DNA of 64,000 bases, taken from NCBI GenBank assembly GCA_030704615.1, contig CM060734.1, positions 21,390,001-21,454,000 of the forward strand. The letters run 5' to 3'. The notes beneath the pieces were generated by a model. It was not told the DNA's origin. It searched no databases and saw nothing but the letters and a program-made list of their open reading frames with translations. This document shows positions 9,096 through 58,989 of the stretch, one piece after another (positions within the stretch are counted from its first letter, which is position 1; every line of letters begins with the position of its first letter). The DNA comes from Takakia lepidozioides (Eukaryota > Plantae > Bryophyta). The position numbers and the translations under genes were made by a program.

Positions 9096-9559
9096 GGGCT
9101 GCTATTGAATGAGCGGCATGAGCATGAGCGGAAAAAAAAATAAACATGAGCGGACCATTGTGTGTCCACGGAAATAGGGGTAGGAGGCACGGAAATAGGG
9201 TCATGTGAAGTTGGAATGTGGCACCATTGGACTCGTCATAGCAATGAAATGCAACATTTTATTGCAAATTTTGTGGCGAGCCATATCTATACAACTGTCC
9301 TAACTGTCATAGCCGGAATGGGAACTACTATCCTCCTCTCCTACACCCTTCGAGGAACTTGCCCCACCTGCCTCCTCATCCCCCTCATCCCCTGACATCT
9401 GAGATGCATCACTTCCACTATGCCTCTCAAAAATACCGTCCTCTCCTTGGGGAACTGTCCACCTCACCTCCTGGGAATCTTCTCCCTCTTCTCCCCCACT
9501 TTCCTCAGCAGAATCCAAGACAAATCTACGAGCCTGACGAGCTCTAATAGCTGCTGCCT

Positions 9560-15239: not shown

Positions 15240-18200
15240 ACAGGACTTCATTCGCCCGAAAAAAAACGCCATATTTCCATTCGGGGTGATGAACTCTGGC
15301 AGGCACGTGGAGCCCACTCCGCCCGAGACGACTTCATCACTGACCCCTCGGATGGAAATTCGGCGCCATATTTCCATCCGGGGGATGAAGTCTGGCACCA
15401 TCGAGAGGACCCATCTAGGCCCTTAAGGACTTCATCCCCGCCCCCTCGGATGGAAATATGGCGCCGAATTTCCATCCGGGGAATGACATCTTGCAGCCAC
15501 ATGCACCCATGTCGGCCCCCCAGGATGGAAATACGGCGCCGAATTTCCATCGGGGGATGAACCTTGGCAGCCATATGGACCCATCTCAGCCCACCAGGAC
15601 TTCATCCTTGGCCCCTAGGATGGAAATACGGCGCCGAATTTCCATCGGGGGGATGAACTCTGTCAGCCATGTGGTCCCATCTCGGTCCACCAGGACTTCA
15701 TCCCTGGCCTCTAGGATGGAAATACGGCGCCGAATTTCCATCGGGGGGATGAACTCTGTCAGCCATGTGGACCCATCTCGGCCCACCAGGACTTCATCCT
15801 TGGCCCCTAGGATGGAAATACGGCACCGAATTTCCATCGGGGGGATGAACTCTGTCAGCCATGTGGACCCATCTCGGCCCACCAGGACTTCATCCCTGGC
15901 CCCTAGGATGGAAAACAACGCCGAATTTCCATCGGGGGGATGAACTCTGTCAGCCACGTGGACCCATCTCGGCCCACTAGGACTTCATCCCTGGCCCCTA
16001 GGATGGAAACACGGCGCCGAATTTCCATTGGGCGGATGAACTCTGGCAGCCAACTGGAACCATATCGGCCCCACACGACTTCTTCCCTGGCCCTCCGGAT
16101 GGAAATTCGGCACCATATTTCCATCCGGGGATGAAATCTGGCAACCATATGCACCCATCTCGGCCCCCAAGGACTTCATCCATTGCCCCTCGGATGGAAA
16201 TACAGCGCCAAATTTCCAACCAGAGGATGAACTCTGGCACCAACGTTGACCCCTAGGATGGAAATTCGGCGCCATATTTCCATCCCGGGAATGGAAAAAC
16301 GGCGCCGAATTTCCATCCATGGAATGAAATTTGCACCGATAAAGGGAACACAAGGGACCGGAGGAAGGAAATTGCAAATTTTCTGGGCGAAGTAGCAAAA
16401 CCACGAAAAATGGGAGTAAAGGGTTAAAAATGTCCAGAGTGGCACGATCCCACCCCCCTCGGATGGAAATTCGGCACCATATCTTCATCCAGGGGATGAT
16501 TTCTGCCAGGCACGTGGAGGCCTCGGATGGAAATTCAGCGCCATATTTCCATCCGGGGCATGATTTCTAGCAGCCACGTTCCAGCCTCGGATGGAAATAT
16601 GGTGCCATATTTCCATCGGGGGCATGATTTCTGGCAGCCACGTTCCAGCCTCGGATGGAAATTCGGCGCCATATTTCCATCCGGGCCATGATTTCTGGTA
16701 GCCACGTGCAGGCCTCGGATGGAAATTCAGCACCATATTTCCATCCGGGGCATGATTTCTGGCAGCCACGTTCCAGCCTCGGATGGAAATATCGCGCCAT
16801 ATTTCCATCCGGGGCATGATTTCTGGTAGCCATGTTCCAGCCTCGGATGGAAATTCGGCGCCATATCTTCATCAAGGGCATGATTTCTGCCAGGCACGTG
16901 GAGGCCTTGGATGGAAATTCGGCGCCATATTTCCATCTGGGGGATGATTTCTGGCAGGCACGTTCCAGCCTCGGATGGAAATATGGCGCCATATTTCCAT
17001 TCGGGGGATGATTTCTGGCAGCCACGTTCCAGCCTCGGATAGAAATATGGCGCCATATTTCCATCCGGGGCATGATTTCTGGCAGCCACGTTCCAGCCTC
17101 AGATGGAAATTCGGCGCCCTATCTTCATCCGGGGGATGATTTTTGCCATGCACGTGGAGGCCTCGGATGGAAATTCGGCGCCATATTTCCATCCGGGGGA
17201 TGATTTCTGGCAGCCACGTTCCAGCCTCGGATGGAAATTCGGTGCCATATTTCCATCCGGGCCATGATTTCTGGTAGCCACGTGCAGGCCTCGGATGGAA
17301 ATTTGGCACCATATTTCCATCCGGGGCATGATTTCTGTCAGCCACGTTCCAGCCTCGGATGGAAATATTGCGCCATATTTCCATCCGGGGCATGATTTCT
17401 GGTAGCCACGTTCCAGCCTCGGATGGAAATTTGGTGCCATATCTTCATCCCAGGGATGATTTCTGCCAGGCACGTGGAGGCCTTAGATGGAAATTCGGCG
17501 CCATATTTCCATCCGGGGGATGATATCTGGCAGGCACGTTCCAGCCTCGGATGGAAATATGGCGCCATATTTCCATTCGGGGGATGATTTCTGGCAGCCA
17601 CGTTCGAGCCTCGGATGGAAATATGGCGCCATATTACCATCCGGGGCATGATTTCTAGCAGCCACGTTCCAGCCTCGGATGGAAATTCGGCGCCATATCT
17701 TCATCCGGGGGATGTTTTCTGCCAGGCACGTGGAGGCCTCGGATGAAAATTCGGCACCATATTTCCATCCGGGGGATGATTTCTGGCAGGCACGTTCCAG
17801 CCTCGGATGGAAATATGGCGCCATATTTCCATCCGGGCCATGATTTCTGGCAGTCACATGCAGGCCTCGGATGGAAATTCGGCGCCATATTTCCATCCGG
17901 GGCATGATTTCTGGCAGCCACGTTCCAGCCTCGGATGGAAATATGGCGCCATATTTCCATCCGGGGATGATTTTTGGCAGCCACGTGGAGGCGTCGGGTG
18001 GAAATTCGGCGCCATATTTCCATCCGTGGGATGATTTCTGGCAGCCACGTGGAGGCCCGGGATGGAAATTCGGCGCCATATTTCCATTCGGGGGATGATT
18101 TCTGCCTGGCACATGGAGGCCTCGGATGGAAATTCGGCGCCATATTCCCATCCGGGGGATGGTTTCTGGCAGCCACGTGGAGGCCTCTGCCCCCGAGAGG

Positions 18201-18455
18201 ACTTCATCCAACCCCCCCGGATGGAAATTCGGCGCTATATTTGCATCCGGGGGATGGATTCTGGGCATCCATGTGCACGCTTCTGCCCCCGAGATGACTT
18301 CATCCACCCCCTCTCGGGTGGAAATTCGGCGCCAAATTTCCATCCGGGGGATGGATTATGGCAGCCACGTGGAGCCCTCTCCCCTCGAGACGACTTCATC
18401 CAACCCCTGTCGAATGGAAATTTCGGCGCCATATTACCATCCGGGGGATGGATTC
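15240..18455. repeat. Tandem array of palindromic units: 96-bp period (~15520-16100) and 64-bp period (~16460-18180, ~27 copies)
   Basis: Core GGATGGAAAT-N10 (central GGCGCC)-ATTTCCATCC. Unit starts at 15618/15714/15810 (96 bp apart) and 16525/16589/16653/16717 (64 bp apart). Confidence 0.95.
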
Positions 18456-18529
18456 TGGCCGCCACTTGCAGCCCGCAGGAGCTCTCCCAGGACATACTTT
18501 TATGGAGCCGACCACGAAATAAATGCTGC

Positions 18530-19220
18530 GAGTCATTCCCGGGTACGGGCATATTAAATGCTGCTTCTTTCTTTGCCACTTGTCCAAATTACCACCTACA
18601 CCCACTGCGTTCAAATCTGGGAAGCAAGTCAAGCTCCTCTCGTCCGCTCCTCCCACTTCCTCTCCTCCCATACTCCCAGGACAGTTGGTCCGGAATGTTG
18701 ACAGGTATGGATAGGAAACATGACGGGCACCCTTGGTGCGTGACCAGAACCACCAGCATGAAGATGATCGATGGTGTGCGGGTGCGGTACGTTCTGTGTG
18801 TGGGCGCGCTGCGGTGTTTCTCCTCAACCTGCTTCTACTATAAATCCAAAGGTCACAGGAACGAGACGGATTGGACAGGCACAACTCTTCAACCCTTCCG
18901 AGCTCAAGAGAAGGTTCCAAACTCCACATTTAAGTGCGCGCATTGCAAAGAACCACCAGTTTGCATGTCTGTTTGTAATGCCAAGCAATACTATGTGTGC
19001 CAGCTTTTGTCAGACCTCACACGAGCTTGCATACACATTGGTGTGCACTGTCAAAAATTGGTGAGGGGGAACTCGCGGGAGGCTGCCCAAGAGGCAGAGC
19101 AGCTCATTCAGGAGGAGGTCAAGTTGAGACCTGGTGCCAAACCCAAACAGATACAACTACAGGCCGCCCAGAAGATGACATTGAGCAGAATAATGTCGGA
19201 AGATGGCTCCAATAGACTTC
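18530..19220 (+). pseudogene. Cys/His-rich GCM/WRKY-like domain, probable N-terminus of a MULE-type transposase, 3'-truncated
   Basis: DGHPW...R...C.G.L.C....C...N...W.G...CAHC...P.C...C.A...R.CIH.G.H pattern; homology appears to stop near 19220, at the inferred inversion breakpoint. Confidence 0.5.
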
Positions 19221-19671
19221 CTCCAATGGGGCACTGCCGGTGGCTTCAGCGTGTAGTGGGGGGCGAGAGTCGACCCCAACTTCATTCTGAAGACCATGTT
19301 CTAGGGATGACACAATTGCGATACGTACTTCGTCAAGAAGGTCATCAAAGGTCGGCTGAATATAGACATTGTCTTTTATGAACGTAAACGAGTCATACGC
19401 ATTGTCGAGAGCATCATCGGACCTATCTCCACTATCGGAGGCAGATGACTCCCTCGTCACGGTGGGGCGTCAATGCCACGGATACTCAACTGAAGATCAT
19501 GGATTGTATGAAGGCGACTAATGATGGGGCTACGTTTGCACCCGGCCTCTTGATCTATCGACTTCAGATGTTGGGACTTGTGCGATTGAAGACCAAGCGA
19601 TGATCTTATTGGGGTGGATACTTGCAAGCTATCCGGTGTTAGAGGGACTAATCACCAGCTAGGGGGGCGAT

Positions 19672-20192
19672 TGTGGCGTGGCTTTCTAGGACTATATGCT
19701 AGGAAGTGTGGTTGGACAGCGATGTATGTTGTGGCACGATGCTTAGGTGCACGACAGTTGTCATGGTTTTATTTGTGATTAGTTAGAAATAGTTATTTCT
19801 AACTAATTAGGACATTATACATTTATATTTGTATTTTGTTGGCATTGGGACTTCATTTGGTTCCATGTGCCAAGTGAGGTGGCGAACCTCACTTGGGACG
19901 TGGGGAGGTTATCTCCACGTGAGACGTAGGTTGGCTCGTCTTCTTCTAGTCGAGCCTCCCGAAGCCTATCTCGCCGCCATAGCTCTAGTACTTGAGATGG
20001 AGAGTGGGTGAGGTCTGTATGGTGGAGTCCTTTAGCAAAGGTGCCATTGGCTTGACTTATATAACGTGATAGAGTGGTTTCTCCTCTTTTCACCATTTCC
20101 GTATCATTGTGGCGTGGCTTTCTAGGACTATATGCTAGGAAGTGTGGTTGGACATCGATGTATGTTGTGGCACGATGCTTAGGTGCACGACA
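19672..20192 (+). repeat. 3' terminal repeat block A-B-A of the DNMT retrotransposon, preceded by a PPT
   Basis: PPT-like AGGGGGGCGAT at 19661-19671; A1 19672-19756 (85 bp); GT; B 19759-20106 (348 bp); T; A2 20108-20192 (85 bp). Confidence 0.85.
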
Positions 20193-20689
20193 GGACTCAC
20201 CATGGGACGGAAACCTTGTGGTGGGAGTCGTGGGGAGTCTTGGGACTCATCATGGCCCAATGGGGCCGTGGTGGGTGGGCCAAGACTCACCGCGACTCAT
20301 CACCGGGAGTCGAGAATTTTCGTGGTGGTTCGCCATAAAATGGCAGGGTTGTTTGTGAAACCCCCGCGGACAATCACAGAAGTATATATAGGGAGTAGTA
20401 ACCCCGAGAACGGTGCAAGCCCGTTGGTGACCAAAAGCTAGTGAGTAAGCGTGCGAGGCGGAAAGCGACCAAGGTGTGGGGAGCTGTTCCGGACTGCCAT
20501 CGACCAAATGGAATTTCCACTTGGCCCAAATTGAGAGAGGGTCTTGTGGAGGAGTAAAGGGGGCCATTATATCCCGGTGAGCAGCCAAAGCTCCGAGTTG
20601 GCCCGACGGCCAGTTTGGGAGTTAGGCGCGCACATCAAAGTGAGTAACTATGACTTGAAGGGGAGCTTACCGAAGTGAGGTACGCGACA
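20193..20689 (-). mobile_element. Solo LTR family A, left half of a split copy (strand given relative to the 52313 copy)
   Basis: Homologous to 29089-29585 and, reversed, to 52313-52815; ends ...CGCGACA; flanked by CCAAG (reverse complement of TSD CTTGG). Confidence 0.88.
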
Positions 20690-20773
20690 CCAAGTGTGCT
20701 CTGCCTCATCTTGCAAACGCAATTGGAGAGCTAGACCTTGGGTCACTCGTCCGCCTCACCATTGTCATGCCCA

Positions 20774-22100
20774 CTACCTCTGTCCAAGACATCGTGGACA
20801 CAACCATTCTCCGATAAGAACCTCCTCAAGTGGCGGTGTCAAGCATCCCATGTGCCACCCCCTTGAGCATTTGTCACACACCAACATGGTTGCGGCGCCA
20901 CTAGCATGCCCACATAGCATGCAACGCAACCCTGCAGGTACCACTGCAAGGTTAGGATCTATCCTCCTATCCACATGTGGAAGGTGACATGGCGCACAAT
21001 TGCACACATGGTCCTTCCATACCATGCCATCTCGACCCTCCAGAATCAACACTCCTGAAGGCAACACCTCCTTGACCCTTAGAATCACACGTCATGCTGT
21101 GACATCCAAGGTCGTAGGCGTTGTCTGTTGCAGATACACATAGTCTCCAGGGTGGAAACGCCGAACACTTGGCCGATATCCCCCTCCACGTATAGTGGCG
21201 TACCTCAATGTGTCTCGGTGTTGGGCAATAGCAAGGTTCTCAAAAGCCATAGGCATGACTCTCTTGAACAACTCTGCCCGCTGGGCACATGCTTGTGTCC
21301 ACACATCCGGATCATCAAGGTTGAGAACTATTGCAGCCTCCCTGTGGATAGATGCAGGCAAATCCGGCTCTCGGCCGAAGAGAAGAAAGTAAGGTGAGAA
21401 GGAGGCAAGTGAAGCTTGTTTGCTGAATCTATAGCCCATAGCTAACCAAGGCAGTTGCAGGTCCCAATCTCCTAGGTGTCCCTTCTGCAAACCGTACTTG
21501 CGCAAACCTCTCTTGACTGTCTGAACAACTGTCTCCGCCAAGCCATCGGCCTCAGGATGATCTCGAGACATAGTGCGGTGATCTATCAAGGTTTGCTCAC
21601 ACAAAGCCTGAAACTCCCCCAAGAACTTTCTCCCCTGGTCCGTGAGTACCTTGGCTGGAGCACCAAAATGGCTAAGCACTCGATCTAAGAATGCATACGC
21701 AGCCCCCTCACTTGCCGTCAGGCAACAGTGCTGGGAATTAAGATGTCGTTGACGACACCTTAATCAATCCATTTGGAGAAGTGTTCCACCATCACCAGCA
21801 CATACTTGTTATGGCAAATCGTCAGTGGTAATGGGCCTGCGAAGTCAAGACTCCAACGATAGCCCAAACCCATAATGGGTAAATGATGCAATTGTGGAGT
21901 AGGAGCGTTGAAAGAAGCCCGCACTCTATCACACACCATGCACCTTGCCACTAACTGTTGCACATCCGTGTGCATGCCCCGCCACCAATAGTGCCCTTGC
22001 AGCAAACTATGAGTGCGCCGCACCCCAAAATGTCCCAACTTCTCATGGGCATGGCGTACCAATCGCACTCGTTGTGTTGGATGAGGCACAATCCTCACTC
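20774..22100 (-). pseudogene. Integrase with C-terminal PHD finger (PHD 20789-20923)
   Basis: HEKLGHFG...CMVC zinc finger, SLDFAG, LTDQG, DGLAE, SPYFLLFGR; then C4HC3 CMLC..MLVCDKC.RGWHMGCL.PPL......W.CPRC. Confidence 0.93.
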
Positions 22101-22399
22101 ATCTATCCTCCCATACCCGGAGTAGATGAGTCCCCTCCCACTTGAACCTCTTGGCTCGTTGTAGGACGCGATCTCTCTCCTTAACAGTCACACTAGCTGC
22201 TGTCTCTCCGGTACGAAGGTATGTCAACACTGCTGCATCTTCATGCACATCCTTAGCACCACCAAACTCCTCACTAGTCTCTGGATCGTCATGCACGCTA
22301 TCTACATGACCAATCGCATGGGATGAACCAGCTTGAGCTCCTATTGCTAGAGTGCACAAAAAGGCCGATGCATGTTATCCTGGCACCATCTCCTCATTC

Positions 22400-23000
22400 G
22401 TCTCACCATGCCACCGAGCTCCAGTATCACCATGCTCGCTCGTGCATGGATTACGACTCAATCCATCTGCATCCTGATTGACAATACCGGCTCGATGTAT
22501 CACCTGGAAGTCGTACTCTTGAAGCATAAGTGCCCACTGTGTAAGCTTCCCTGTAAGCTAGTCTGACTCCATCAACCACTTCAATGGTTGGTGATCCGTG
22601 ACAAGGGTGAAGAGATTGCCATAGAGGTAGCATATGAAATGTGCCACTGCCCATATTGCAGCTAGACACTCCCCTTCATAGGAACTATACTTCGCCTCGG
22701 CATCATTGTTCGAGCGGCTAGCATATGCCACTACGAACTCCCTTCCCTCATCATCCACCTTTGTGAGCACTGCTCCAATCCCCAGCATACTCCAATCCGT
22801 ATGTAGCTGGAAAGATCGCCCCCGAATAGGCCGCCTCAGAATAGGTGCAGAAGTCAATCGAGCCTTGAGTTTCTCAAATGCTTCCTCCTGCTCCTCTTCC
22901 CATTGCCACTCCTGACCCACCTTGGTCAACTTGGTAAGAGCATTTGCAATGCTGCTAAATCCCTTGACAAACCGTCGATAATAGTTTGCCAATCCCATGA
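22400..23000 (-). pseudogene. RT connection and RNase H
   Basis: FMGLANYYRRFV, LHTDWS..GIGAVL, VAYASR, YSSYEGECLA, VTDHQPLKWL. Confidence 0.93.
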
Positions 23001-23800
23001 AAGCACAAACTCTGCTCACATCCATGGGGCGTGGAATGCATGCAATGGCCTCCACCTTTGTCTATTGAACACCCAATCCTCCAGGGTATATCATGTGGCC
23101 CAGATACTCAATCTGATTGTGGAAGAACTTGCACTTTCCGGGGTGCAGTTTCAACCCGTGCGCTCTCAAGCGCTCAAACGCCACCTGAAGGTGTCTCTCA
23201 TGCTCCTCACCGTAGCACTAAAGACAATGATGTCATCAATATAGCACCGGACGAAGTCTAACCCCGCGAGAATCCTATCAATGACCCTCTAAAACTCTGC
23301 AGGAGCATTCTTCAACCCAAACGGTAAGAACCGCCATTGGTACAAACAATCCTTCCCATGTTGGTCAATCCCCCAGAATGTTGTCTTTTGCTTGTCAGCC
23401 TCTTTGATTGGCAATTGGTGGTAACCGGATCGCAAGTCCAATGTGCTAAACACCTTTGCATGCCCAATGGAATCAAAGATCTCTGGAGTTGACATGGCAT
23501 ATCTATCGGACTTAGTCTGACGGTTCACAGGACGATAGTCCCCACACATCTTTCTTTCTGTCCAATTGCCATAGATATCCTTCTTAGCTGGCATCACCGT
23601 TGCCGAGGCATACTCCCCGCCTGACAACTCCACCAATCCAGCTTCGAACAACTCCATAGTCCGTGACTGGATCAATGACCTCTCCATGTCACTATACCGG
23701 TAGGGCCTTCGAAAGATTGGCGTGTCACTTGTCAAATCAATACGAATCTCCTGACCTTTCAAACTCCCCAAATCCTTCAAACTGAAGGCTATAAGCCCTT
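23000..23800 (-). pseudogene. Ty3/Gypsy reverse transcriptase
   Basis: DYRPVN, FSTLDLRSGYHQ, PFGLKNAPAEF*, CYIDDIIV (~23225-23250), KC..F...YLGH. Confidence 0.95.
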
Positions 23801-24299
23801 AGAAATTGCTGGATCCTCCGTCTCTCTCCTCCGGTGACTGTAGATCCAACATCTGGTTCCCAATTGTCCTCAGTGACTGCAACCTTGGGTACACCAGGCT
23901 TGGAGATAGGAGACGAATCCTTTGGTTGCTAGATAGCAACCTCTTGGGCCTTGTCCGCCCAATCTGACTGTGGCGTAGCCTCCACTTGCTCCGCCATAGC
24001 CACCTTGAGAACATCCTCCGCACAAGAAACATCCTCAACCTCTTCAAAAACCTTGGTCACCTTGGCCTCCAACTGATCCTCAGTCCATGGCTCTCCCCAC
24101 TCCTCATACTGCTGCTTGAGAGATCCAATGACTCTCTCTTTGCGCATCTCATCCCACATCTGCCATGGGTGTTTGCAACCCACGATCTTGTGCTCGCCCC
24201 CACTCACTGCCTCAACCGTCTCGATTGGCAGGGAGGATGCACTATCCAATGGGAGTGCAGAAGTAGCCATCAATGCTTGCAATCTCCATTGCTCAGACA

Positions 24300-25278
24300 T
24301 GCACAAGCCAATGACCCATGTCAAGCAATTTAGATCCATTGCTTGACCCAACACTTGGCGGCGTGATGCCTCTGACAGAGCTGGCACATCTGTAGTGCCG
24401 GTGGCAAATCCCATTGCCCGCTCTCGCTCATCCGCATTGGGCTCTATCAATTGCTGTAGTACACTGTCCCAAATCAATCCAGGACCATTGTCTCAAAAAG
24501 CATGAGACGAGGGAAAGCTCATGAGCGTAGGCAAAGCCGAACGTGGCTGCCCCACTCGATTGACCACTGCTAGAGGTGGACGGTCATCATGTCGCACCCT
24601 CTGTGGTTGTCTCTCTTGGTCCAAAATGCCCTCAACCGTGAGATGAATGGAATCGTATGCTCTCTTGAGCAGCTCTGGTGGTGCAAGATTGGTCCACCAC
24701 AATCGAGGTCGATGCGCGCGTGATCCCACCGCTGCTGCATCCAATAGCACCGCCAATCCAATCCAAGACACTTGATGCACACTGGCCATAACCCTGGCTC
24801 GAGAATCCCCCATAAGAGGAACATTCTCCAAGATATAGCCTAGAGGTTGCACTTGCCTCGTCTGCAAGTCCCGCAACACTCGCAACATCTCCCAAAACAA
24901 ATGCAATCGTGCATAATGCAAGCCATTCCCATGACCTGCGGGAGAGTGTCCTTGGCAAGACCATCCGGTTATCACCAAGTCAATGGAACCATGCCGCTGC
25001 AAATCATCCGCCCCCAGCAAGGTAATGTCTGCTGGCAAGGCCTTTTGATACCCTTGAACTGCTGAGAGAGGCAACAACTCAGGATACCGGTGTGTGAGCA
25101 AGGCAATGTGGCGCATGGAAATACGCCAAGCAATCTCATCCTTCTCCACATACAAGTACTTGCGTACTTTAATCCCTGCTTGCAACACTCCTGCAAGCCC
25201 AGTGCTCATGCCTCCAAACAGGTCTAGCAAACAAATCCCCGAATCAGGTGGTTGCCAGGTAATGGGCACTGTGTCCAA
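24300..25278 (-). pseudogene. DNMT3-like C5 cytosine DNA methyltransferase domain within pol
   Basis: Motifs I LDLFGG, II VEKD, III DIT, IV DLVITGWSCQ, VI YILENV, VIII AHRPRLWWTN, IX ERERAMGF and X RRQVLGQA, in canonical order. One in-frame TGA at 24493-24495. Confidence 0.92.
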
Positions 25279-25628
25279 AGGAGCTAACTCAAGAGGTCCA
25301 GGTGAGTCACTGAACTCCCCTCACTCACCAATGGACAGGCCTCCCACCATGCTTGGTGCACACACTCGCCTGCTACTCGATGCAAATTCCCAACCGTACC
25401 CCAAAGTGGAATATGCACAGGCACATGAGGAAGCAAATCAGCCTTGTATGCCAATTGTTTGTCCTCATCAGGTGATGGCCTATCATCTGCATGGCTATTG
25501 CCCTCCAAGAGCTCACCACCCCAAGCCACCACCCCTGAGAATGCAGCCAATGTGGGCATCATGTTCCTATGATCCACCGCTACATTCCCAATAAACCGCA
25601 CTGGGAGCAGTGCACGTCGGCCATCTCC

Positions 25629-26462
25629 TTACTGCCATTCCGGCCTGTAGGATGCCGTTTCCTCCCAAAAGTCCAAAGTAAAGCCCATGGGGTATAACAC
25701 AGCCCCACCAACAAGCATATCATAAGACATCGCGTCCGTAACAATGGCTTTAGTTCTCATGACTGAGCCGTCCGTAGGATGGTCCGGTTGCAATCGAATG
25801 AAGAGCTCATGGCGTGTAATCCCTCGTGCCTTCTCTGAACCGCCCAAAGATGTTTGAATTTGGAAAGGACAAGGCTCCAAATCCGCCTCTGTAAAGCCTA
25901 AGCCTGCAATTGCTGCTATTCCCAACATCAATGACTGTGCTCCCGAGTCCAACAAGACCCGTAGTGGCCTATACCTCTTTCCGGCTGGGCCACCCAACTG
26001 AAACACACCATCCTGATTGTCCACCAGGACTACCCCAGGAGTCACCATACTACGCTCAATGGCTGGTCTAGCTGACAACTGCAACCTTGCAGCTGCCGCT
26101 TGCCATGGTGCAGTTGTGGCTGTCTTCACCCTTGAGTCCATGACATCCATGCACTGCACATTATCCGCTATCCCCGCAGATAGTGCCGATGCATCACCAC
26201 TCTCACAGAGTCTAGCTGCTAGTCTGAACACAGCAGCTGGCCGAATCCCCGGCATTGCAATGGTCATCGCAGAAAACAATGGAGCTTGGCAAACCGCCGT
26301 AGCCGCCCCCAACAATGTACTGGCTGCACCCTGCTTTGCAGCACCACCCACTGGCATTTCCCGAGCCACACCAACTCTCCCCACTGGTACTCGTGGCTCT
26401 ACCTCTGACACACTTGGGTGAGTGGGTACCATCGATGGCATAGTTGGCACTATCTCAGCCAA
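25629..26462 (-). pseudogene. Retroviral-type aspartic protease
   Basis: VLLDSGA active-site motif and downstream YDMLVG. Confidence 0.85.
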
Positions 26463-26489
26463 TGTGAAAGACTGTGGAAGCCTTGTCTG

Positions 26490-28053
26490 TCAACTTGCTT
26501 CCCCTCTTTGTGGATCAAAATCCACATCTGCTCCTCTTGGCTCAGGAGCACGTGTTGCTACTCGAGTGACAACAGCTGCAGAGTCCACATGCAATGGTCC
26601 AGCACGTGTGGCTCCACACATGAAGCCCATACCAATCTGGTCTTCCCTAGGCATAGGCAGTTGTGCAGGTAGGGCTTGAACCTCAGGCCTTGGGGCTGAC
26701 GCCACATTAGTAGTGGCCATGGCAGCAAGACGTTGCTCTAGTTGGGCAAGCCTATCCACCATGCCTTGGTCATGACATTGACCTTGACCTTGTGCTCCTT
26801 GGTTTTGGTTACGACCTCCACCGCGACCTCTGCCTCCTCTATCTCTCTGGACTACATTGTCTCGTCCTCGGCCACCATTGCTCCCTTGGAACTGGCCTGG
26901 CCGTAGCTCAGGATGCAAGTCATAACAATGGGCCTCTTCATGCCCATACTTGCCACAATGCCCACACTGTAGTTGTGTAGGCTGTGCCTGTGCCGGCCTT
27001 TTGCCTCTCTCCGGGCAATCTCTCTTAACATGGGGTCCTCCACAATCCCAACATGTCACACCCGACTGTTGTTGGCCTGAGAATGAAGGAAGTGACCTCT
27101 GCAATTGAGATCCTCTCTGTCCTTCCCTGGGCTTTGCCTGAGCCCCCTTGTTGCCTTGAGCACGTCGGGGTAGTGGTCGTTGTTGGCTAGGAGCCCCACT
27201 TCATTGCGTCTCCTTACCAAACCCCACCATGACCACTCGCTCCTCCACCATATTGAGCTCTATCCGCTCTGCCAGCAAAAACACGTTTGCTAAGGTGGGT
27301 TGATCTACTTGTAGGAGAGTTGCATCCCGCACCCTTCTCCTTAGCTCTTTGTCCAATATCCCATACCAGAATTGGACTGCTTGAGCTTCCGTAACCCCTT
27401 GGGTTACATTTATCAATCGCCTCATGCGCGTGTAAGCCTCCCTCAAACTCTCAGTAGGCTTGCACTGGAACTCTTGCAAGCTCCGCAATTTCTCCGTCCT
27501 TATCCCCTGGTAGTTTCTCCTCAACTCCTCGAAGAACTCCACAACTGGGTTAAAGGCAGGCACGGGTGCTGGTGCTGCAGCAGGAGCTTGAGTGGATTTC
27601 CCAGCTCCATCTTTACTTGTCCCACTACTAGTGCTTGCAGTTGGGGATTGTTGGTGTAGCTACTGGTATCGCCGCTGCCCTTGTGCCTCTAGTGATGGAG
27701 ACATAGTCAGGTGACCAATATTGTCGCCACTCCTCAATCTCCACCTCATTTCCCCGCCTAAACTCATGGTAGTCATCCATAGGCGGCCCCTCAAGGTGCT
27801 GAAACAGCCTCTTCCACGCCATAAAAGGCGTAAACAGTTGTGGATTGCGCATCTGCTGCAAATCACACCAACTATCAAACTCCTGTATGAAATCATCAAG
27901 CTCGATGGTGCCCACAGCTCCCGAGTACCGACGTGGTCCCTTGGTAGCTCCATACATTTCCTCCATTGTATCCCACAACAATGAAACGGAAATGGCTTGC
28001 ACCCTCGGCGAGAATCCTCCTAACTCTGAGTCTGAACCTTCCTTAGAAGACAC
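26490..28053 (-). pseudogene. gag: Gag of the DNMT retrotransposon
   Basis: Capsid-like ORFs 27628-28053 and 27201-27563 (L..FQ....ESLREAY.RM..L); zinc knuckles CWDCGGPHVKRDC and CGHCGKYGHEEAHC. Confidence 0.85.
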
Positions 28054-28860
28054 TGAAGGTTAAGGTGGCCTAAACCACACACCTCGTCTTGTATACCCAC
28101 TAGTATCGCTGGTGCTCGTACCGGCACTCTCCTCAGCAACTGGTGGCACCTCCGTGATGAAAACTCACACTCAAACCGGCTATCAGCTTGTCTCTAATCC
28201 CCATTTCCACGAGGTAACCGGGTAGAGAACCTGGTGCAGCTTATGGTTTGGAATACTAGGTTCCTATTCTGAACCTGCACTTGCACCTACATCCACCGCA
28301 GGCACTCCTATGGTCTGCTGGTCATCAACCCAGCCTCACATAAGATAAACAATGATGGTCTGCTGGTCATTACCCCAGCCTCACCACCGACAGCACGCTC
28401 TAGGATTGGCCGGCCACAATATTTCCGGCACAACCACCTATAAAAGCAAGCGCCCAAACCAAACTAGCATGGCGCACAGTCAAGCATGTATGTGTGGGAG
28501 GAGGATCCAAACACATGAAACTCAAACAACAACACCTCCCACAGCTTAAATCCATCGATCTCATTGCGGCTTCAATAAACCTGCAAGATGGCCAAGTCTC
28601 TATCCAAACCAGCTCTGCCAACGCTTACGGAAAAGCTTTGGCCTACAAGAATGATGGAAGACTATAGAGAAGGGAAGCTAAAGCAATTTCTAAGCCCAGA
28701 ATGCTCTCATCCTATTATTCCCCCTATCTTCACACTCACTCTTGCTCAAGCAATAGATAAAACTATCATTAAAGAACCTCTCAAATAACTCTCAAGAGCC
28801 CTCAAATTATTGCCATGAACTTCTGAAATCTGCCCTCAATCAGCCCCTAACATAGACCCG

Positions 28861-29585
28861 TGTCGCGGCCCTTTGCCTTGAGGGCAGGGGGTCGGGACAC
28901 ATGAGGGGCTGCCCCTGTGGTGGGGGCATCGGCAGCGATAGGTATGGGGGGCTGAAGCACCCTTGAGTGCCCAAGGCACTGAAGGAGGCGGAGGCGCTCA
29001 CTAGGTGGAGCCCCGCACACCGGGTTGCGGTGGGGGTGGCTCCACAAGGGGTGGTGGTAGCTTAGCGGGACTTAGTGGGGGTGGCATAGGACTCACCATG
29101 GGGGCGGAGACCTCGTGGTGGGAGTCGTGGGAGTCTTGGGACTCAGCACGGTCCATAGGGGCCGTGGTGAGTGGGCCAAGACTCACCGCGACTCATCACC
29201 GGGAGTCGAGGGTTTTCGTGGTGGTTCGCCATAAAATGGCATGGCTGGTTATGAAACCCCCGCGGACAGCTACAGAAGTATATATAGGGAGTAGTAACCC
29301 CGAGAACGGTGCAAGCCTGTTGGTGACCAAAAACTAGTGAGTAAGCGAGCGAGCCGGAAAGCGACCAAAGAGTGGGGAGCTGTTCCGGACTGCCATCTAC
29401 CAAAGGGAATTCCACTAGTCCCAAATAGGTGGAGGGTTTAGTGGGAAGCGAAGGGGGGACCGTTATGTCCCGGTGAGCAGCCGAAGCTCCAAGTTGGCCC
29501 GGTGGCCAGGTTGGGAGTCAGGCGCGCGCATCAAAGCGAGTAACTATGACGTGAAGGGGAGCTTACCGAAGGGAGGTGCGCGACA
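28861..29585 (-). mobile_element. Solo LTR family A inserted in the leader of the DNMT element
   Basis: TGTCGCG...CGCGACA termini; full-length reversed homologue of 52313-53049. Flanks share only CCG, so the TSD is imperfect. Confidence 0.8.
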
Positions 29586-29689
29586 CCGAGGTTCAAGAAG
29601 TTCGCAAACTTGGACTCTAAACAGTCCACCGAAAGGCCCTAGGCGCCCGCCAATTAGTGGCCTCCATGGTCTCCAACCAGCCCCCACAA

Positions 29690-30125
29690 TGGCTCCACAA
29701 GCCTGCCCAATATGGCCTCCAAGAGTCCTCCAAACAGCCCTTAAGAAGCTCCTCAAATCTGCCAAGTATTGGCCTCCAAGGACCTCCAACAGTCCTCCAA
29801 AGAGCTCTTAGAAAGTTCCATAAGTCTGCCCAATATGGGCCTCCAAGGACCTCCAACCGTCCTCCAACCAGCCCTCACAAGGCTCCACAGGCCTGCAAAA
29901 CAGTGGCCTCGAAGGACCTCAAATAGTCCTTCAAACAGCCCCAAGCAGGCTCCACAAACCTGCAAGATATTGGCTTCAATAGACTACAAATAATCCTCAA
30001 GCAGGCCCCAATACCTACAAAATATTGGCCTCAATAGACCCCAAACAGTCCTCAAGCAGGCCCCAATACCTGCAAGATATTGGCCTCAATAGACCCCAAA
30101 TAGTCCTCAAAGCAGCCCTAGAAGG
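29690..30125 (+). repeat. Degenerate ~55-65 bp tandem repeats
   Basis: Recurring ATTGGCCTC(C)AA(G/T)(G/A)GACC...AGTCCTC units. Confidence 0.75.
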
Positions 30126-30149
30126 CTCCAAAAATATCCATAGTCAGTC

Positions 30150-30660
30150 AATTTTTCATCCATCACTGACGAAATTTCATCCAAAACCGCGATTTATCAT
30201 CCGAGGTCCGATACTTCATCCGCCACGATAGTTCATCCGTCGGTGCAATATTTCATCCACTGGTGCGATTTCATCCGCTGGCGCAGTTTCATCCGTCGAC
30301 ACGATTTTTCATCCGATGGCACGATAGTTTATCCGCTGCCACGATTTCATCCGCTGACGCAGTTTCATCCGTCGCCGCGATTTTTCATCCAATAGCACGA
30401 TAGTTCATCCGCTGCCACGATTTCATCTGCTGACGTAGTTTCATCCGTCGCCACGATTTTTCATCCGATAGCGCGATAGTCCATCCGCTCACAAGATTTC
30501 ATCCACTGACGCAGTTTCATCCATCGCCGTGACTTTTCATCCAATAGCACGATAGTTCATCCGCTGACGAGATTTCATCCTCTGGCGCGGTTTCATCCAC
30601 TGCAACCGATTCTCATCCAGAAACGCCAATTTTCATCCATTGGCTCAATAGTTCATCCGA
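30150..30660 (+). repeat. ~19-21 bp period TTCATCC array
   Basis: More than 20 copies of TTCATCC(G/A) with short variable spacers. Confidence 0.85.
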
Positions 30661-31479
30661 TTGGACAGTGGTAGTGCTCCCAACTCTGGGGCAATGTTCC
30701 CACGCGTTCCTATGCGTTCCCAAGCGTTCCCAAGCTAGGGTTTGCGCCGCTTTGCCTCTGCGATTGCTGCAACGAGCTATGGGTTCTATGGAACAACCAG
30801 AGGTGCTGTTCTTGGTTTCTTGAATATCAATAGACCACCAAGAGTGCCTCTAACTCCCTGAGCAAGCTATTTGCCACACAACAAGCTCTCTTTCTCTATA
30901 GAATTTATTGAAACAAACATAGAACAAGCTATTGAGCTTTCTACGGCATACCCTCTTCTAGCCATTGTATGCACTCATAGTGCTTCCTTCCATGGCCATA
31001 GTGCACCTCTTAGAGCTCCTAATTCAGCCCTGCACTTGCCACTTCCATAGACATGCTCTTCCCAAGCTTGGGATTGAAACCCCAACTCAAAGGATGCTCT
31101 ACAAATACACTATTCTGCCCCAAAGAGAAATCAGATGTCTACCTCCACTCATAACTCTCCTAAGCTTGAAGTTGAAGACTCCCACAAGCTGAAACCATGC
31201 TCCACACATGCACCGCTTGCTTCCTTAACACCCGAGCTCTTCTTGAACTCCTCAAACCCTGCAACACTTGCAGAACAAGAACTTCTTCACAAGCTCTCAA
31301 ACTTTCCATTGGGGCTTTCCTTGAAGACCTCCTCTTGTACATAAACACCACAAAACTTTCTTCTTGCAAACCCTGCAACACCTTGTATCTTAAGAGCTAT
31401 ATATCAAGCTCTCTTCCACACACAAGTGCTAACTATGCTAACACCTTGCACTCATAGATGTAAGCAGGTCTTCTTCTAG

Positions 31480-31827
31480 TCATATGGAAATGGTGCAAAG
31501 AGGAGAAACCACTCTATCACGTTATATAAGTCAAGCCAATGACACCTTTGCTAAAAGACTCCACCATACAGATCTCACCCACTCTCCATCTCAAGTACTA
31601 GAGCTATGGCGACGAGAGAGGCCTCGGGAGGCTCGACTAGAAGAAGACGAGCCTGCCTACGTTTCACGTGGAGATAACCTCCCCACGTCCCAAGTGAGGT
31701 TCGCCACCTCACTTGGCACATGGAACCAAATGAAGTCCCAATGCCAACAAAATACAAATATAAATGTATAATGTCCTAATTAGTTAGAAATAACTATTTC
31801 TAACTAATCACAAATAAAACCATGACA
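31480..31827 (-). repeat. 5' terminal repeat B of the DNMT retrotransposon
   Basis: 348-bp near-identical reverse complement of 19759-20106; starts TGTCATGG on the minus strand and ends exactly at the B boundary. Confidence 0.88.
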
Positions 31828-32058
31828 GTCCTATGCCACCCCCACTAAGACCCACTAAGCTACCACCACCCCTCTTGGAACCACCCCACCGCAACTTGGT
31901 GTGCGGGGCTCCACCTAGTGAGCGCCTTTGCCTCCTTGAGTGCCTTGGGCACTCAAGGGTGCTTCAGCCCCCGCATCTATTGTTGCCACTGCCCCCACCA
32001 CAGGGGCAGCCCCTCTTGTGTCCCGACCCCCCTGCCCTGAAGGCAAAGGGCCGCGACA
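31828..32058 (+). mobile_element. Solo LTR family A, right half of the split copy
   Basis: Homologous to 52815-53049; ends GCCGCGACA followed by TSD CTTGG (32059-32063). Confidence 0.88.
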
Positions 32059-33810
32059 CTTGGGCAAGAATACGCTTCGCAATGGGAGCTAATGTTCTTG
32101 CACTAGCACCAATCAAATCCCACCATTCATGTGACAACATGTTGAGCTCTTTCGGATCCGACATGTTCTCAAAAGGGTCGCGGCGATCTGAGAAGCATTG
32201 GTACTCGGATATAGCTCTCTCTGCCATGTTGCCAGGAACAAGTCGCATTAGCACTCGTACGAGGCCGGCCTTGGCATCAGCATCGTCTTGGAATATGGTA
32301 TTGTTGAAACAGGGACCACATGTCAAAGAGGCACCTAAAGCCAGGCATAGCCAACATTGTATCTTCAGGTTCCAAGGAGAAGGGATGATGCCTGAGGGAT
32401 TGGACATGCTTCTCAAGATTTTGCATTAGTAACCATGTCTTGCCCATTACTGGTTGCTTTCCATCGAACTCCCACAAGACGATTAGCACCGGCTCTACCA
32501 TATAAACAAAGTTTTCATATTTCTTCCAAAAATCATCGTTGCGAATGGTGTTTCGAACCTTTCGACTTTTACCCAATGACGTGGCTTTTCTCGAGTCCCG
32601 TAATATCCGTATGTATGCCTCCCATTGAGGATCGATGAGGGTGTGCTCGAGACTGCTCTTCACCATCACCAATCTATCCACCATCAAAAAGTTAGTGGCA
32701 AAACCGGTTTCGCCTCGGTTCTGGAGGCTGTATTTGGGTTCATGCCTCCTATATATTGCCAAAGGGATGTGGTGTGTGCGGATAAACGACACAACGGTCT
32801 TCTCTCGCTTGACACGTTGTTTCATCCACTGTTCTTTTCCCCAATCTTCCAAAAAGAGGTCAAGGATATGAGTAGCACAGCCTTGATAGTACTTATGGGG
32901 ATACCGTGCCAATAACATGTCTGCAGTGTTTCTCATGTTAGCGGCATTGTCTATGCATATTTGCACGATTCTATCACTTCCGACCTGTTCGATGAAATTC
33001 GTCAATAGCTGGCATTGATAACGTCCATCTTTCTTCTCGCCGCTAGTGTCCACCGATCCCAAGAATTGTTTCCCAGCTGGACATACAAGCATGACATTGA
33101 ACAATGGTCTGTTTGTAACAGAACTCCAACCATCGGCACATATAGTGCTTTCATATTTTCTGATGCACTCGCCCGTTCTATCGTTGACATTTTGGGTAAG
33201 CTCTGTCATGACATCTTCTAGCAATGATGTGCGGAGATTGTGATAAGAAGGAGGCACGTATGTGGATCTGGATTCCGAGGTTGCTCTAACGGCAGAAACA
33301 AATGCCGGAAGCCTTGTCACATTAAACAGTATGTTGGTCTCGAAGAAAAACTGCGTCCATTTTTCATCCAATTGCATTTTCGCAGACAAGTTAATGTCAT
33401 CTTGCATGGATTGCTACCGTAATCCTCTACTCCGTTGAGTGTAGGGGTACAAAGAAGTGTTGAAGCAGGTGTTGCTCCGGCACAACCCACTTGTCCAATG
33501 ACACCTTAAGTCTCACAAGAGTCGGTCAATGCATCCTGACGGGAAGATGGAGTGTTCTGCTCAGAGGTCATGTCGCGATCCAGAGACATTGGAATATTGC
33601 CTTCACACTGGACAAAGTGGATTTTTACCCGCATAGATGTTTTAGGGATAAATCTACCCCGACGATCTTCACAATTCTATAGCCAAAGTGAGCGAGCAGC
33701 CGATCCTTACGATAAGAAAGCTTCAGTCCATATAGGTTACACTCAACACTGCCAGTGTTCGGGATTACCGTATACCAAAGGCTTCATTCCTCCCTCATCT
33801 TCATCCCATA
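32059..33810 (-). pseudogene. hAT transposase (BED finger remnant, DUF659-like core, dimerization domain), interrupted by solo LTR-A
   Basis: ICADGWS....RPL.N, FLGSVD.SG..KD, VQI..DNA, C..HILDL..ED, T.FAT.F, WW..G.....LAP.A.RILAQV. The continuation QVCSASSCKRNW lies at 20691-20728 on the + strand. Confidence 0.9.
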
Positions 33811-36456: not shown

Positions 36457-38370
36457 TCATGCTGGTCTCCCAGCTGTGTGGGCTTTTCTACGATTAAACC
36501 TCGCATTTTGTACTCTCACTAGATAATCCAGTATGTCCTCTCGGGCCATTCTGCCCTCAAGTAATTGTCTTTCTTCTGTTATTGTAGCCATACCTCGTGG
36601 CATTTCTGGTGGTGCGGCCTGTGCCTCCACATTGTCAGCCATTAATGTAGTAGTTAGAGCCATTTGACACTCCATCAGAATCTCGTCCAGGGCAGTTGCA
36701 GGATTGGGTGGATCAAAAGCGGCACATGTTGAGTCCATTGGAAGTCCATGGATTTTTTTTTTTTTTGAGTCTATTGCTTTCAGTTTATTCTTAAAAAAAT
36801 AGATAGTAGTATACATAACATTTTTAGTAAAGAGTCCCCCCTCAAATATTGATAATATTTTTTACTAGATATTTTAAACGTTAATGTGAATAAATATTTA
36901 GACATCAAAATCTAGAGTTTATAACCACTTGTCCATATACCAGCTGGCACCTCTAGATTATAGGTTTGTATGTCTTTTTAGTAAAAGATGACACCTCAAA
37001 AACCCAAAACATAAGATGCTATGGACTAGAGCAAATCAACCTGTTTTTAGGTGCAAAATAGTCCATAGCTCTCAATCCCTAAGATAACTAGTCCATATAA
37101 AAATGGATTTGGATTGGATTTAAAAATGGCACTCCACAGTAATCTTATGGATTTTTTTCAGTCCATAAGATTTTATGTGTAACATCTGCACTCCACAGTA
37201 ATAAACTTAAAAGTCCATGGCTCTCTGGTACATGATTGTTTTTGAAATCTAACAATTGGTACACATACCTATTGTACTTAGAAACCCCACACCACATAAA
37301 TTTAGATGAAATATTGAGTTGTTGGACAAATATGGGTAAAATCATGGAGGGAGGTCATTGCAGAAACTGCCATGTTACGCAAAAACTGAGACACCAATCC
37401 TGCAAATACCCTCTAGACTTTTATCCTTGCTAGCCAGTAGTATATTGTGCAATATACAACAACAATGTATAGCCTGTGATGGAAACTCCAGTGCCAATCC
37501 TGTCTTTGTTCCAATCTCCTTGAAACAACCCTTAAGAATACCGAAGGCCCTTTCTATGGCCATCCTAGTTGCAGAGTGCTTTCTATTTAACCACATTTCC
37601 TCTTGGCTCAAAGGTCTTCCCATAACATCTTGCTTAAATGGAGTGATAAGCCACTTGAGGAGTGGGTATCCTCTGTCACCAGCAATGTAAGGGGGAAACG
37701 GAAGCCTGGATGGTAACAATGTTGGATCCATATTGAGACCAGACATGATGCCCTCCTCAGCCTTGCGATATAGTTCTGAGCATTTCAGGTGGTAGGAGTC
37801 ATATATACTGCCGGGCACCCCAGTGTTTAGAGACGTGAAGTAACACCTCGAGTCAACCACTCCCTGTAATAGGACACCGAAAGACTTGTTACTGTTCCTA
37901 TGGTTAGCCGCAATCTTTGTATCTTTTGGTGCACGGATGTAGATGTGGCTCCCATCTATTGCCCCCAGACAATTCGGGAGCCTCTGCTTATTCTCAAAGT
38001 CTCTTGTGATTTTTTCCAGCCTGCGGATGAGGTGCCCGAGTACATGACAAATTGCAGGGATTACCTCCCTCATGATGTCGTAGACTGTAGATCGACCAAT
38101 CCCTGCTTTATTTGCAACGCGTGTGCAAGTATGGCCATGCATGAGTTTGTATAGGGTGACAACTACCTTCTTTTCAACACTTATTGGCTCCCTCCACTTT
38201 GTGTGCTGGCCTTGCACATACGGCCACAAGTCATCACAGAGTTTCGCAAATGTCCTACATCGCATCCTCACAATATCAAACCACATTTCTTGGGTATACA
38301 CATCGAATAAAAATGTGTCAAACGAATGGCAGGGGGCTCTTCTGGCAACATGTTTACACCAGCCGGTCAT
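36457..38370 (-). pseudogene. PIF/Harbinger (HARBI1-like, DDE_Tnp_4) transposase interrupted by a MITE
   Basis: RM...TF..LC, GIGRSTV, NCLGAIDGSHI, LQGVVD, PGS..D, GDRGYPL..WLITPF, R..IERAFGILK, C.ILHN. The reading resumes DEILMECQ...GR.ARE.ILDYL after the MITE. Confidence 0.92.
36690..37411. mobile_element. Tourist-like MITE, ~720 bp
   Basis: TIRs GGGCAGTTGCAGGATTGG and CCAATCCTGCAAATACCC (16/18 match); AT-rich non-coding interior; imperfect 3-bp TSD (CCA/CTA). Confidence 0.78.
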
Positions 38371-39304
38371 AGACAGAAGGCACCTATGGAGGTGGGCAGT
38401 GACAGCAACGAAGAAGGGTGAACAAGTGCTGGATCAGGTGGAGGCTGGGGATGCACATCTCCCTGGTGCTGCACTTGAACCAGTTAGTTGGTAGTTAGTA
38501 GAAGGGAGCATTATAGGCGCTCATTTTGGAAATCATAGCAACCTGGACATCATTTCTACTGTACGTACGTTTGTGAACAACATCATAGGGTGTACAATTT
38601 ATGCCATTCAGGATTATAAAGAGATGCATAGTTTTCTTCGTGTGAGTTTGATCTCCTTGTATTTTCCTCAGTATAAGAAAGGGGCATTGTTTGTCATATG
38701 TGTAGAGTCTGAATTCCCATTTATGGGGATGCCAATATATGCCTGGAAAAAGAGAGGGTGATATGGAAGGGTAGGGGACAAGAGGGGAATGTGAAATGAA
38801 TTGTACTTGATGACCCACGCATCGCCGGCCGACATAGCCGCATGAGTGAGGGGCACGTGGCGAACTTCTTGTGGGGTAGGCTTTTGTACTCCATGAATAT
38901 CGTTGTCCACTGCAGCAAAACGCTGTCTGGATTCAGCAAGGGGGTGTTGGTCGATGTCAAAACTCGTGAAATTTTTTGTTGTGCCCAAATCTCCAGCTGC
39001 ATCCTCCGCCTATCACACATAATACACCTAAGAACATCATACTAGAGGTTATGCAACATTGGTCAACTGAGCCTTGTTATTTTGGGTACTACAAGGCTTA
39101 TCAGTCACTAGGAAACCATTCGGATAACAAAAGCCCTAGTTTGATGTGGCTGTTAGAAAATGTTCTTCTCTATTGGGTAACAGTAGCCTCACGGTTTGAA
39201 GAAGTCCCGACAACTTTATGTAGTTGTGGCCAATGTCTTTCTTGTTTCAGGACCATCATAAAATGCAGAATGGAATAAATAAGTGTTGATGTCTCAGCCA
39301 TAGT

Positions 39305-58919: not shown

Positions 58920-58989
58920 TCCCAGAGCATCTATAGGATCTGTCTCTTCATCTGGTGCTTCTGGTTGAACAACAAACAGAAATGCGTCG

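Follow-up and report, generated by a model that had tools for sequence, protein, structure and literature searches.

A bryophyte Ty3/Gypsy lineage with a DNMT3-like methyltransferase placed ahead of a conserved readthrough-type stop codon

Retrotransposons that carry a DNMT3-like cytosine methyltransferase were described in 2018 (de Mendoza et al. 2018, PMC5890265). KnitGypsy-Dnmt3 of Klebsormidium nitens is reported to have DIRS-type repeats (A1, A2, and two B) and Ka/Ks under 0.2, and the authors place the methyltransferase of their Gypsy elements in one ORF with reverse transcriptase (RT) and RNase H (PMC5890265). The Klebsormidium domain gave no methylation in yeast, a result that the authors call inconclusive (PMC5890265). 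Of the dinoflagellate enzymes in that paper, only SymbioDIRS-Dnmt3 has shown activity, and its domains methylate CG de novo (PMC5890265). The survey covered seven land plants and no liverwort (PMC5890265). Later papers, in the text available, cite these elements only for streptophytes. The EpiLTR preprint cites 'streptophytes (Gypsy-DNMT3)' as prior work, and no land-plant host is named in its available text (bioRxiv 10.64898/2026.05.21.726589). A host enzyme of the same family, PpDNMT3b, is reported to perform de novo CG and CHH methylation (PMC6453930).

In this work, a 64,000-nucleotide stretch of the moss Takakia lepidozioides (contig CM060734.1, positions 21,390,001 to 21,454,000; hereafter the window) was analysed. 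The six-frame translation exhibits a DNMT3-like C5 cytosine methyltransferase domain (24265..25245, minus strand) between the protease and the RT of a decayed Ty3/Gypsy copy. The conserved residues follow each other on the minus strand from LLDSGA of the protease (~25955) through the methyltransferase (25245-24265) to YIDD of the RT (~23243). The element is similar to KnitGypsy-Dnmt3 in that an intron-less, non-permuted DNMT3-like domain follows the protease in a Gypsy polyprotein, in the purifying selection on the domain, and in the DIRS-type split repeats, as far as the 2018 text describes them (PMC5890265). It differs from KnitGypsy-Dnmt3 in its land-plant host and in the very high copy number of its lineage. 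It also resembles SymbioDIRS-Dnmt3 and SymbioLINE-Dnmt of dinoflagellates in having a retrotransposon-borne DNMT3-like enzyme, and the DIRS class among them in having split repeats; unlike those DIRS and LINE elements, the window element has a DDE integrase and a 4-bp target duplication (PMC5890265). The same two features rule out a DIRS/Ngaro tyrosine-recombinase element.

The motifs of the domain are in the normal, non-permuted order, namely I (LFGG), IV (GWSCQ), VI (ENV), VIII (HRPR), IX, and X (GQAMD). An earlier note on this DNA had claimed a complete C5-methyltransferase domain with motifs I-X in order between an LDSGA protease and a YIDD RT, and this is confirmed. The Pfam search with PF00145 that the note proposed gives a match above the curated cut-off (E 2.3e-8, 34.3 bits; cut-off 22). 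All 29 matches of the PDB sequence search (29/29) are DNMT3A/B/C. A profile of 59 relatives ranks DNMT3A (3e-24) above DRM (2e-14), M.HhaI (1e-8), and DNMT2 (6e-4). The AlphaFold model of the domain, built with X at the internal stop, has a pLDDT of 94.5, and its best structural match is DNMT3B/3A (Z 29, rmsd 2.4, 269 aligned residues); the matches to M.HhaI and DNMT1 have Z 24.5 and Z 22.8. The alignment to DNMT3A/B runs from end to end (Foldseek E 1e-20), and residues 1-319 of the model are collinear with DNMT3A 631-908. A DRM identity is ruled out by the motif order, which is not permuted, and by the structural alignment. The PDB matches, the profile ranking, and the Z scores thus agree with the earlier reading of the domain as DNMT3-like rather than MET1/CMT or DRM; this closeness rests on profile and structure scores, the methyltransferase trees being composed of element and phage enzymes. 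By sequence and fold the domain belongs to the same family as the host DNMT3 of non-flowering plants, and it has no host-type targeting domain. Unlike the element, the host DNMT3 genes are described as single, intron-bearing, and not fused to Gag (PMC6453930).

The catalytic Cys (motif IV), Glu (VI), and Arg (VIII) are all kept in the window copy, as are the SAM-binding motif I and motif X, and the three catalytic residues are invariant or nearly so in 59 diverse sequences. The Pro-Cys dipeptide is absent from the window copy, which has Ser-Cys in motif IV, and the reading frame of the domain is interrupted by a TGA at 24493-95. Motif IV is GWPCQ in 35 of 46 relative proteins. Pro-Cys also occurs in 56/56 near matches that show motif IV (117 examined); relatives of the copy carry the dipeptide that had been supposed for its ancestor. 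The Pro-Cys pair does vary, the Pro being replaced by Glu (GWECQ) across a whole second clade (27/80 loci, 64/193 proteins). Intact copies are likely to encode an active 5mC enzyme. It is rather improbable that the domain methylates little or no DNA and has instead been retained for binding nucleic acid or nucleosomes, or for acting on RNA or RNA:DNA hybrids. Such a role would fit the inactivity of the algal (Klebsormidium) domain in yeast (PMC5890265) and the Glu that a large clade has in place of the motif IV Pro, but the near-invariance of the Cys, Glu, and Arg and the retention of motifs I and X argue against it.

The copy can be followed over its full length. The 5' repeat A1 (31482..31827, minus strand; 346 bp) starts with TGTCATG and has 11 differences from A2 in 346. 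It is followed by a 5' non-coding region with short tandem repeats (29588..31481, minus strand), assigned by its place between A1 and gag. A 727-bp solo LTR of another family (TGTCGCG...CGCGACA; 28861..29587, no strand assigned) is inserted in this 5' region, as other copies join 28858 directly to 29584. Its sister with a 5-bp duplication lies at 52313-53050. The 727-bp LTR was also considered as the element's own LTR, which is ruled out by its absence from other copies. The gag region (26490..27966, minus strand) has two zinc-knuckle-like motifs, stops, and a frameshift; its Retrotrans_gag match (E 2.5e-4) is below the cut-off, and its pieces are 78% and 46% identical to Marchantia P0002. The aspartic protease (25632..26100, minus strand) has a weak Pfam match in the window and matches better than E 2e-4 in the relatives L022, P0141, and P0077. 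The RT and RNase H (22561..23798, minus strand) are frameshifted (RVT_1 E 3.8e-9, RT_RNaseH_2 E 1e-31). The integrase has an H2C2 zinc finger and a DDE core (21095..22098, minus strand; Integrase_H2C2 E 7e-17, rve E 1.4e-4), and its C-terminal region has a PHD finger (20777..21091, minus strand; E 9.4e-11). Apart from the weak gag and protease matches, these domains exceed the Pfam cut-offs or are backed by relatives. The best PDB matches of the PHD finger are CHD4, PHF12, and PHF21A. The PHD fingers of these three proteins bind the H3 tail. No PHD finger is mentioned for KnitGypsy-Dnmt3 in the 2018 text available (PMC5890265).

The 3' end is inverted relative to the coding region. The 3' UTR (19460..19669, plus strand) ends in a polypurine-tract-like G-run just before B1 and matches the 3' UTR of L002, L034, and L042. 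The 3' repeats (19670..20192, plus strand) consist of B1 (19670-19756), a 2-nt spacer, A2 (19759-20105), and B2 (20106-20192). They are followed by one half (20193..20688, plus strand) of the solo LTR into which the element inserted, the other half being at 31828-32059; 20193-20688 is therefore ruled out as the element's own LTR. The target LTR itself interrupts a hAT-like transposase gene (DUF659 E 8e-34) and is flanked there by a 5-bp duplication (CCAAG). The nested insertions and the inversion have separated this gene into pieces, at 32060-33413 (minus strand) and 20689-20740 (plus strand), and no further part of its C-terminus was found in the vicinity. Empty-site joints in other copies (20198-31827 and 20691-32063, in addition to 28858-29584) confirm all three nested insertions.

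The repeats of the window element are split direct repeats (A...B-A-B) and not paired LTRs. The relatives L034, L042, L047, L051, L058, and L078 also have A before the genes and B-A-B after the genes. A begins with TGTCAYG and B ends with CAYGACA. At the inner junction they form a nearly perfect palindrome of 16 bases, centred on 2 bases (CACGACA-GT-TGTCATG in the window). Twelve of 23 loci that extend past the PHD finger have the junction CAYGACA-nn-TRTCAYG, which is missing from the other 11/23. The window element has a 4-bp target duplication, GGAC (31828-31831 and 20193-20196), and 4-bp duplications also occur in L034, L042, L051, L054, and L058. Its TG...CA ends and its duplication are those of Ty3/Gypsy elements (4-5 bp), and with the domain order and an RT nearest to Ty3 they support the earlier assignment to Ty3/Gypsy. 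Two matching LTRs with a tRNA primer site are not present in the window element, and a tRNA-type (TGG-type) primer site after A1 was found in none of the seven elements inspected (the window and six relatives). The split repeats probably reflect tRNA-independent priming. The integrase might cut an intermediate at the palindromic B-nn-A junction and open it there, which is speculative and somewhat doubtful.

The window copy is dead and partly inverted. Aligned over its whole length, the element falls into 6 pieces that contain 11 stops. Compared with at least 75% of the genome's other copies, it has 26 differences in 23905-24975, of which 15 are of the deamination type; the list excludes the motif IV site 24960, 15 bases from the edge of the compared stretch. 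The TGA at 24493-95 is among the 26 sites and is private to this copy, so it is a lesion as had been claimed. The Ser in motif IV and the TGA are both present as the earlier note had described, but they are not the sole lesions, given the 26 differences and 11 stops. The inverted piece (~19460-20740) may be an assembly error. An inversion between 346-bp inverted repeats was dropped as an explanation, as those repeats are A1 and A2. The divergence of A1 and A2 (11/346) suggests an age of about 1-2 million years at a plant substitution rate near 1e-8. The 80,860 contigs of one sequencing run that align on a 12.7-kb stretch indicate many copies but do not give a copy number.

Other features of the window surround this nest of insertions. 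At 15300-18460 there are tandem arrays with repeat units of 64 bp and 96 bp, and each unit is in part a palindrome. A 448-codon ORF with Cys/His clusters (18035-19378, plus strand) abuts the inverted 3' UTR and has no Pfam match. A second Ty3/Gypsy element (51854-64000, minus strand) has no methyltransferase and has extra ORFs after the integrase; its repeats (51854-52105 and 63749-64000) are 98% identical, and the solo LTR at 52313-53050 lies inside it. The ORFs at 6166-8250 (plus strand) and 37378-38433 (minus strand) are candidate CACTA-type and PIF/Harbinger-type transposases, and a short fragment at 8810-9235 (minus strand) resembles the start of eIF4A and is presumably a pseudogene piece.

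The domain search identified 46 long proteins, led by Marchantia polymorpha (69%), Calypogeia fissa (67%), and Sphagnum, with Marchantia paleacea and Riccia sorocarpa among the shorter matches. Most matches are nameless, and no named fern, lycophyte, or seed-plant protein occurs among the matches listed (46; best 120 of 180). A search of the representative protein library gave 211 clusters at E up to 1e-30, and the viral contigs gave distant phage enzymes only. Distant named relatives in which the protease is followed by the methyltransferase are Klebsormidium nitens KFL_013780020, which has the same order Gag-protease-methyltransferase and 115/323 identical residues, and Closterium. The Scenedesmus relative has the methyltransferase between RNase H and integrase. 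Among the metagenome loci, 61/80 have the RT downstream of the methyltransferase, and the sequence of most of the remaining 19 stops short of the RT; these loci are contigs of public sequencing runs, from which no copy numbers are taken. One relative (P0389, 49% identical) is labelled as a bacterial MAG protein (Candidatus Obscuribacterales) and is probably plant or algal contamination. The intact ORF1 products P0002, P0353, P0354, P0360, and P0361 appear in the Marchantia annotation as host genes, and two of these lie on the male V chromosome. The intact ORF1 models of Marchantia polymorpha, annotated as hypothetical or CCHC, are Mp4g09160, Mp5g06330, Mp5g06860, MpVg00370, and MpVg00540.

The window also has an intron-less and apparently intact methionine gamma-lyase gene (43449-44828, plus strand). 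Its identity is 80% to Calypogeia, 79% to Riccia, 77% to Diphasiastrum, 71% to Physcomitrium, and 67-75% to seed plants. A 21-row tree places it among the bryophyte rows (92/92), the group within them not being resolved. This placement supports the earlier claim of a land-plant representative.

The methyltransferase domain is under purifying selection. Its dN/dS between families is 0.13 (L020/L022), 0.12 (L022/L029), 0.10 (L051/L053), and 0.09 (L051/L044), and the RT is similar; deeper pairs are saturated (0.10-0.22). Dead sibling copies, for which neutrality is expected, gave 0.74 and 1.01 as a control. The earlier note had named a dN/dS near 1 and the lack of the domain in other copies as signs against its reading, and the findings are a dN/dS of 0.09-0.13 between families, the domain at the same place in relatives, and congruent trees. 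That the window copy is dead would suit a neutral passenger, or a host DNMT3 sequence that was captured once by one element. This is refuted by hundreds of relatives (the 211 clusters) with the domain at the same position, by dN/dS near 0.1, and by the congruent trees, and we give it practically no weight.

The RT tree and the methyltransferase tree of 68 elements are congruent (patristic r 0.74; 23/38 strong RT splits recur), the comparison being limited to elements with both domains nearly whole. In these trees the window element clusters with the Marchantia and the Sphagnum-like copies (0.996 and 1.0). Thirteen of 14 protease-first elements are in one methyltransferase clade (0.966); P0141, which has no RT, is outside that tree. 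The other major layout, RT-RNase H-methyltransferase-integrase-PHD, is found in 54/68 elements. A large clade that includes Scenedesmus and P0081 has a related methyltransferase between RNase H and integrase. A second bryophyte-like clade (L043-L080, 35 loci) has a Glu-Cys motif IV, no stop before the RT, the same split repeats, and dN/dS near 0.1. Six proteins of the clade that includes Scenedesmus, namely P0041, P0064, P0074, P0117, P0161, and P0174, also have an adenine-methyltransferase-like motif at the end (MethyltransfD12 E 0.0035 in P0041, below the cut-off). Their elements would carry two methyltransferases, and a PHD finger where the published EpiLTRs have a chromodomain. The EpiLTRs/DAM-LTRs are similar to the element described here in being Ty3-like with methyltransferases and a chromatin reader; they differ in that their DNMT is sister to DNMT4 and their reader is a chromodomain, according to the preprint text (bioRxiv 10.64898/2026.05.21.726589).

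The methyltransferase of the window element is separated from the RT by a stop with a readthrough-type context, TAG CAA CCA (23923..23931, minus strand; motif UAG-CAR-YYA). The TAG at 23929-31 is the end of ORF1 (Gag-protease-methyltransferase) and not a lesion. None of the 9 signal bases differs in at least 75% of the genome's other copies, whereas the TGA site does (26 rows). Among the 45 clade-A loci, 35 can be anchored at the ORF1 end, and 34 of these carry a stop in the homologous position, L024 being the exception with TAC. CAR-YY directly follows the stop in 33/35. Thirty of the 34 stops are from one Sphagnum-like family (CAA CCC, matching 5/6 bases of CAR-YYA), so the independent count is about six lineages. 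The other contexts are CAG TTA in L020 and L022, CAA TCA in L029 and L061, and CAA CCA in L028 (unanchored). The exact UAG-CAR-YYA, in frame with the downstream ORF, is thus present in the window, L020, L022, L028, L029, and L061. The linker around these codons is not conserved and the codons themselves vary. After lesion stops, CARYY occurs in 11/568 and CARYYA in 1/568. The locus L022 is intact, with 1369 codons including the protease and methyltransferase, then TAG CAG TTA, then 1047 in-frame codons; this ORF2 encodes RT, RNase H, integrase, and PHD and matches Ty3-G Gag-Pol in the PDB (E 4e-98). The ORF1 also ends 97 residues past motif X in six Marchantia models (five in one cluster and P0004), 99 residues past it in Calypogeia, and 84-163 residues past it in unnamed intact relatives; the Marchantia ORF1 end is taken from protein models, and the bases after the stop were read in the window and the metagenome loci only.

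The signal is similar to that of tobamoviruses, where an in-frame UAG followed by CAR-YYA precedes the polymerase; UAG-CAR-YYA is their readthrough consensus, and a reporter with CAA-UUA was read through at 6-10% (PMC3159437). Stop-separated retroelements are also reported, with the stop after gag in MuLV and Tca2 and before an env-like gene in SIRE1; unlike in these, the stop of the window lineage comes after Gag-protease-methyltransferase (PMC2194720). The separation of the clade-A enzyme from the RT by a conserved UAG-CAR-YY(A) also differs from KnitGypsy-Dnmt3 as it is described (PMC5890265). The one-ORF layout of KnitGypsy-Dnmt3, with RT and RNase H, is found here in clade B and P0071. 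RT-RNase H-integrase-PHD is very probably made by UAG readthrough, as the codon context suggests. The earlier note had placed the methyltransferase 'inside pol', had suggested that it could be 'packaged with Pol', and had begun its feature at 23929. This wording does not hold, since UAG-CAR-YY(A) separates the methyltransferase from the RT and the enzyme is made with Gag and protease, and 23929 is a stop conserved in 34/35 anchored clade-A loci rather than damage.

Splicing around the stop is the route of Ogre elements. A bypass of the stop by splicing, or a separate RT transcript, would agree with the Marchantia and Sphagnum gene models P0007, P0008, P0012, and P0037, which join the methyltransferase to the RT via introns. 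These models differ in their junctions, as expected of a predictor that avoids a stop; intact loci keep the RT in the frame of ORF1, and the readthrough pattern persists in the 6 bases behind the stop while the encoded amino acids change. We regard this bypass as very unlikely and retain readthrough.

A possible long-range RNA stem 3' of the stop (23812..23920, minus strand; arms ~23920-23896 and 23838-23812) is a weak hint, with mixed controls. It begins about 12 bases past the stop, and own-family arms pair at about -17 to -20 kcal/mol, against -7 to -11 for arms swapped between two sequence types. The folding z is -0.35 to -4.5 in 6 sequences, and the synonymous-recoding control is below 0.05 in 3/8. 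The expected arm is the best partner in only 13/32 loci, and RNAalifold gave no consensus stem after the stop (one input row began at the wrong stop).

The conserved in-frame stop places the enzyme with the abundant ORF1 product and not with Pol. For this high-copy bryophyte lineage we lean slightly towards a reading in which ORF1 provides Gag-protease-methyltransferase, Pol arises by UAG readthrough, and the enzyme fills the particle and methylates the element's own cDNA before integration. Gag-protease-methyltransferase would be made in bulk and assemble the virus-like particle, and a few percent of ribosomes would read past the UAG into RT, RNase H, integrase, and PHD. The particle would then hold far more methyltransferase than RT, in Gag-like amounts, and the enzyme would methylate the new cDNA before integration. 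This dose and place modestly favour the element's own cDNA, inside the particle or just out of it, as the main substrate. The likely benefit would be that each new copy is already methylated on arrival, which would either spare a haploid-dominant host some harm or let the copy pass for old heterochromatin. The PHD finger is predicted to guide integration by reading histone H3.

With the same readthrough anatomy, the enzyme could act in trans or at the target, on host chromatin, competing elements, or insertion flanks. Encoded in ORF1, the enzyme would greatly outnumber RT and integrase, the domain adjoins the integrase in the other major layout (the 54/68 elements), and the lack of a host-type targeting domain is compatible with this action. 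However, methylation in trans would be costly to the host, and the methylome of Klebsormidium is reported as ordinary despite such elements (PMC5890265). We consider action in trans unlikely, although it keeps some weight beside methylation of the cDNA. No stop separates the methyltransferase from the RT in clade B and in several algal elements; a high enzyme dose is thus not required, and the stop-separated layout is derived. A more extensive scenario is tentative and on balance doubtful. An old green-plant Ty3 lineage, abundant in liverworts and mosses, may have shifted its gag/pol recoding site behind a captured DNMT3, so that each capsid subunit would bring a de novo methyltransferase, copies would be methylated at birth, and a tRNA-independent intermediate would be opened at the palindromic junction.

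The element type has been known since 2018 as KnitGypsy-Dnmt3, and the land-plant members and the stop-separated readthrough layout appear to be new in the literature covered. Our literature search, with incomplete coverage of subscription papers and supplements, found no account of DNMT3-bearing Gypsy elements in land plants and no described retrotransposon with CARYYA readthrough. Titles and abstracts gave no split repeats with an integrase beyond the 2018 paper, and the main text of the REXdb paper has no 'methyltransferase', 'PHD', or 'Marchantia'. Finders of paired LTRs would likely miss or mislabel elements with split repeats.

Why transposons carry an enzyme that normally silences them has been a question since 2018; the hosts known so far are difficult to manipulate, and the domain carried by Gypsy elements showed no activity in yeast, which has kept it from being answered. 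The stop after the methyltransferase predicts a Gag-level enzyme dose, which points to a selected role. The intact ORF1 models of Marchantia polymorpha make the question testable in a genetic model. If the more extensive scenario is true, bryophyte genomes would have in these elements a second source of de novo 5mC, encoded by the elements themselves. The elements may also be an overlooked source of background methylation in DNMT3 mutant studies in bryophytes.
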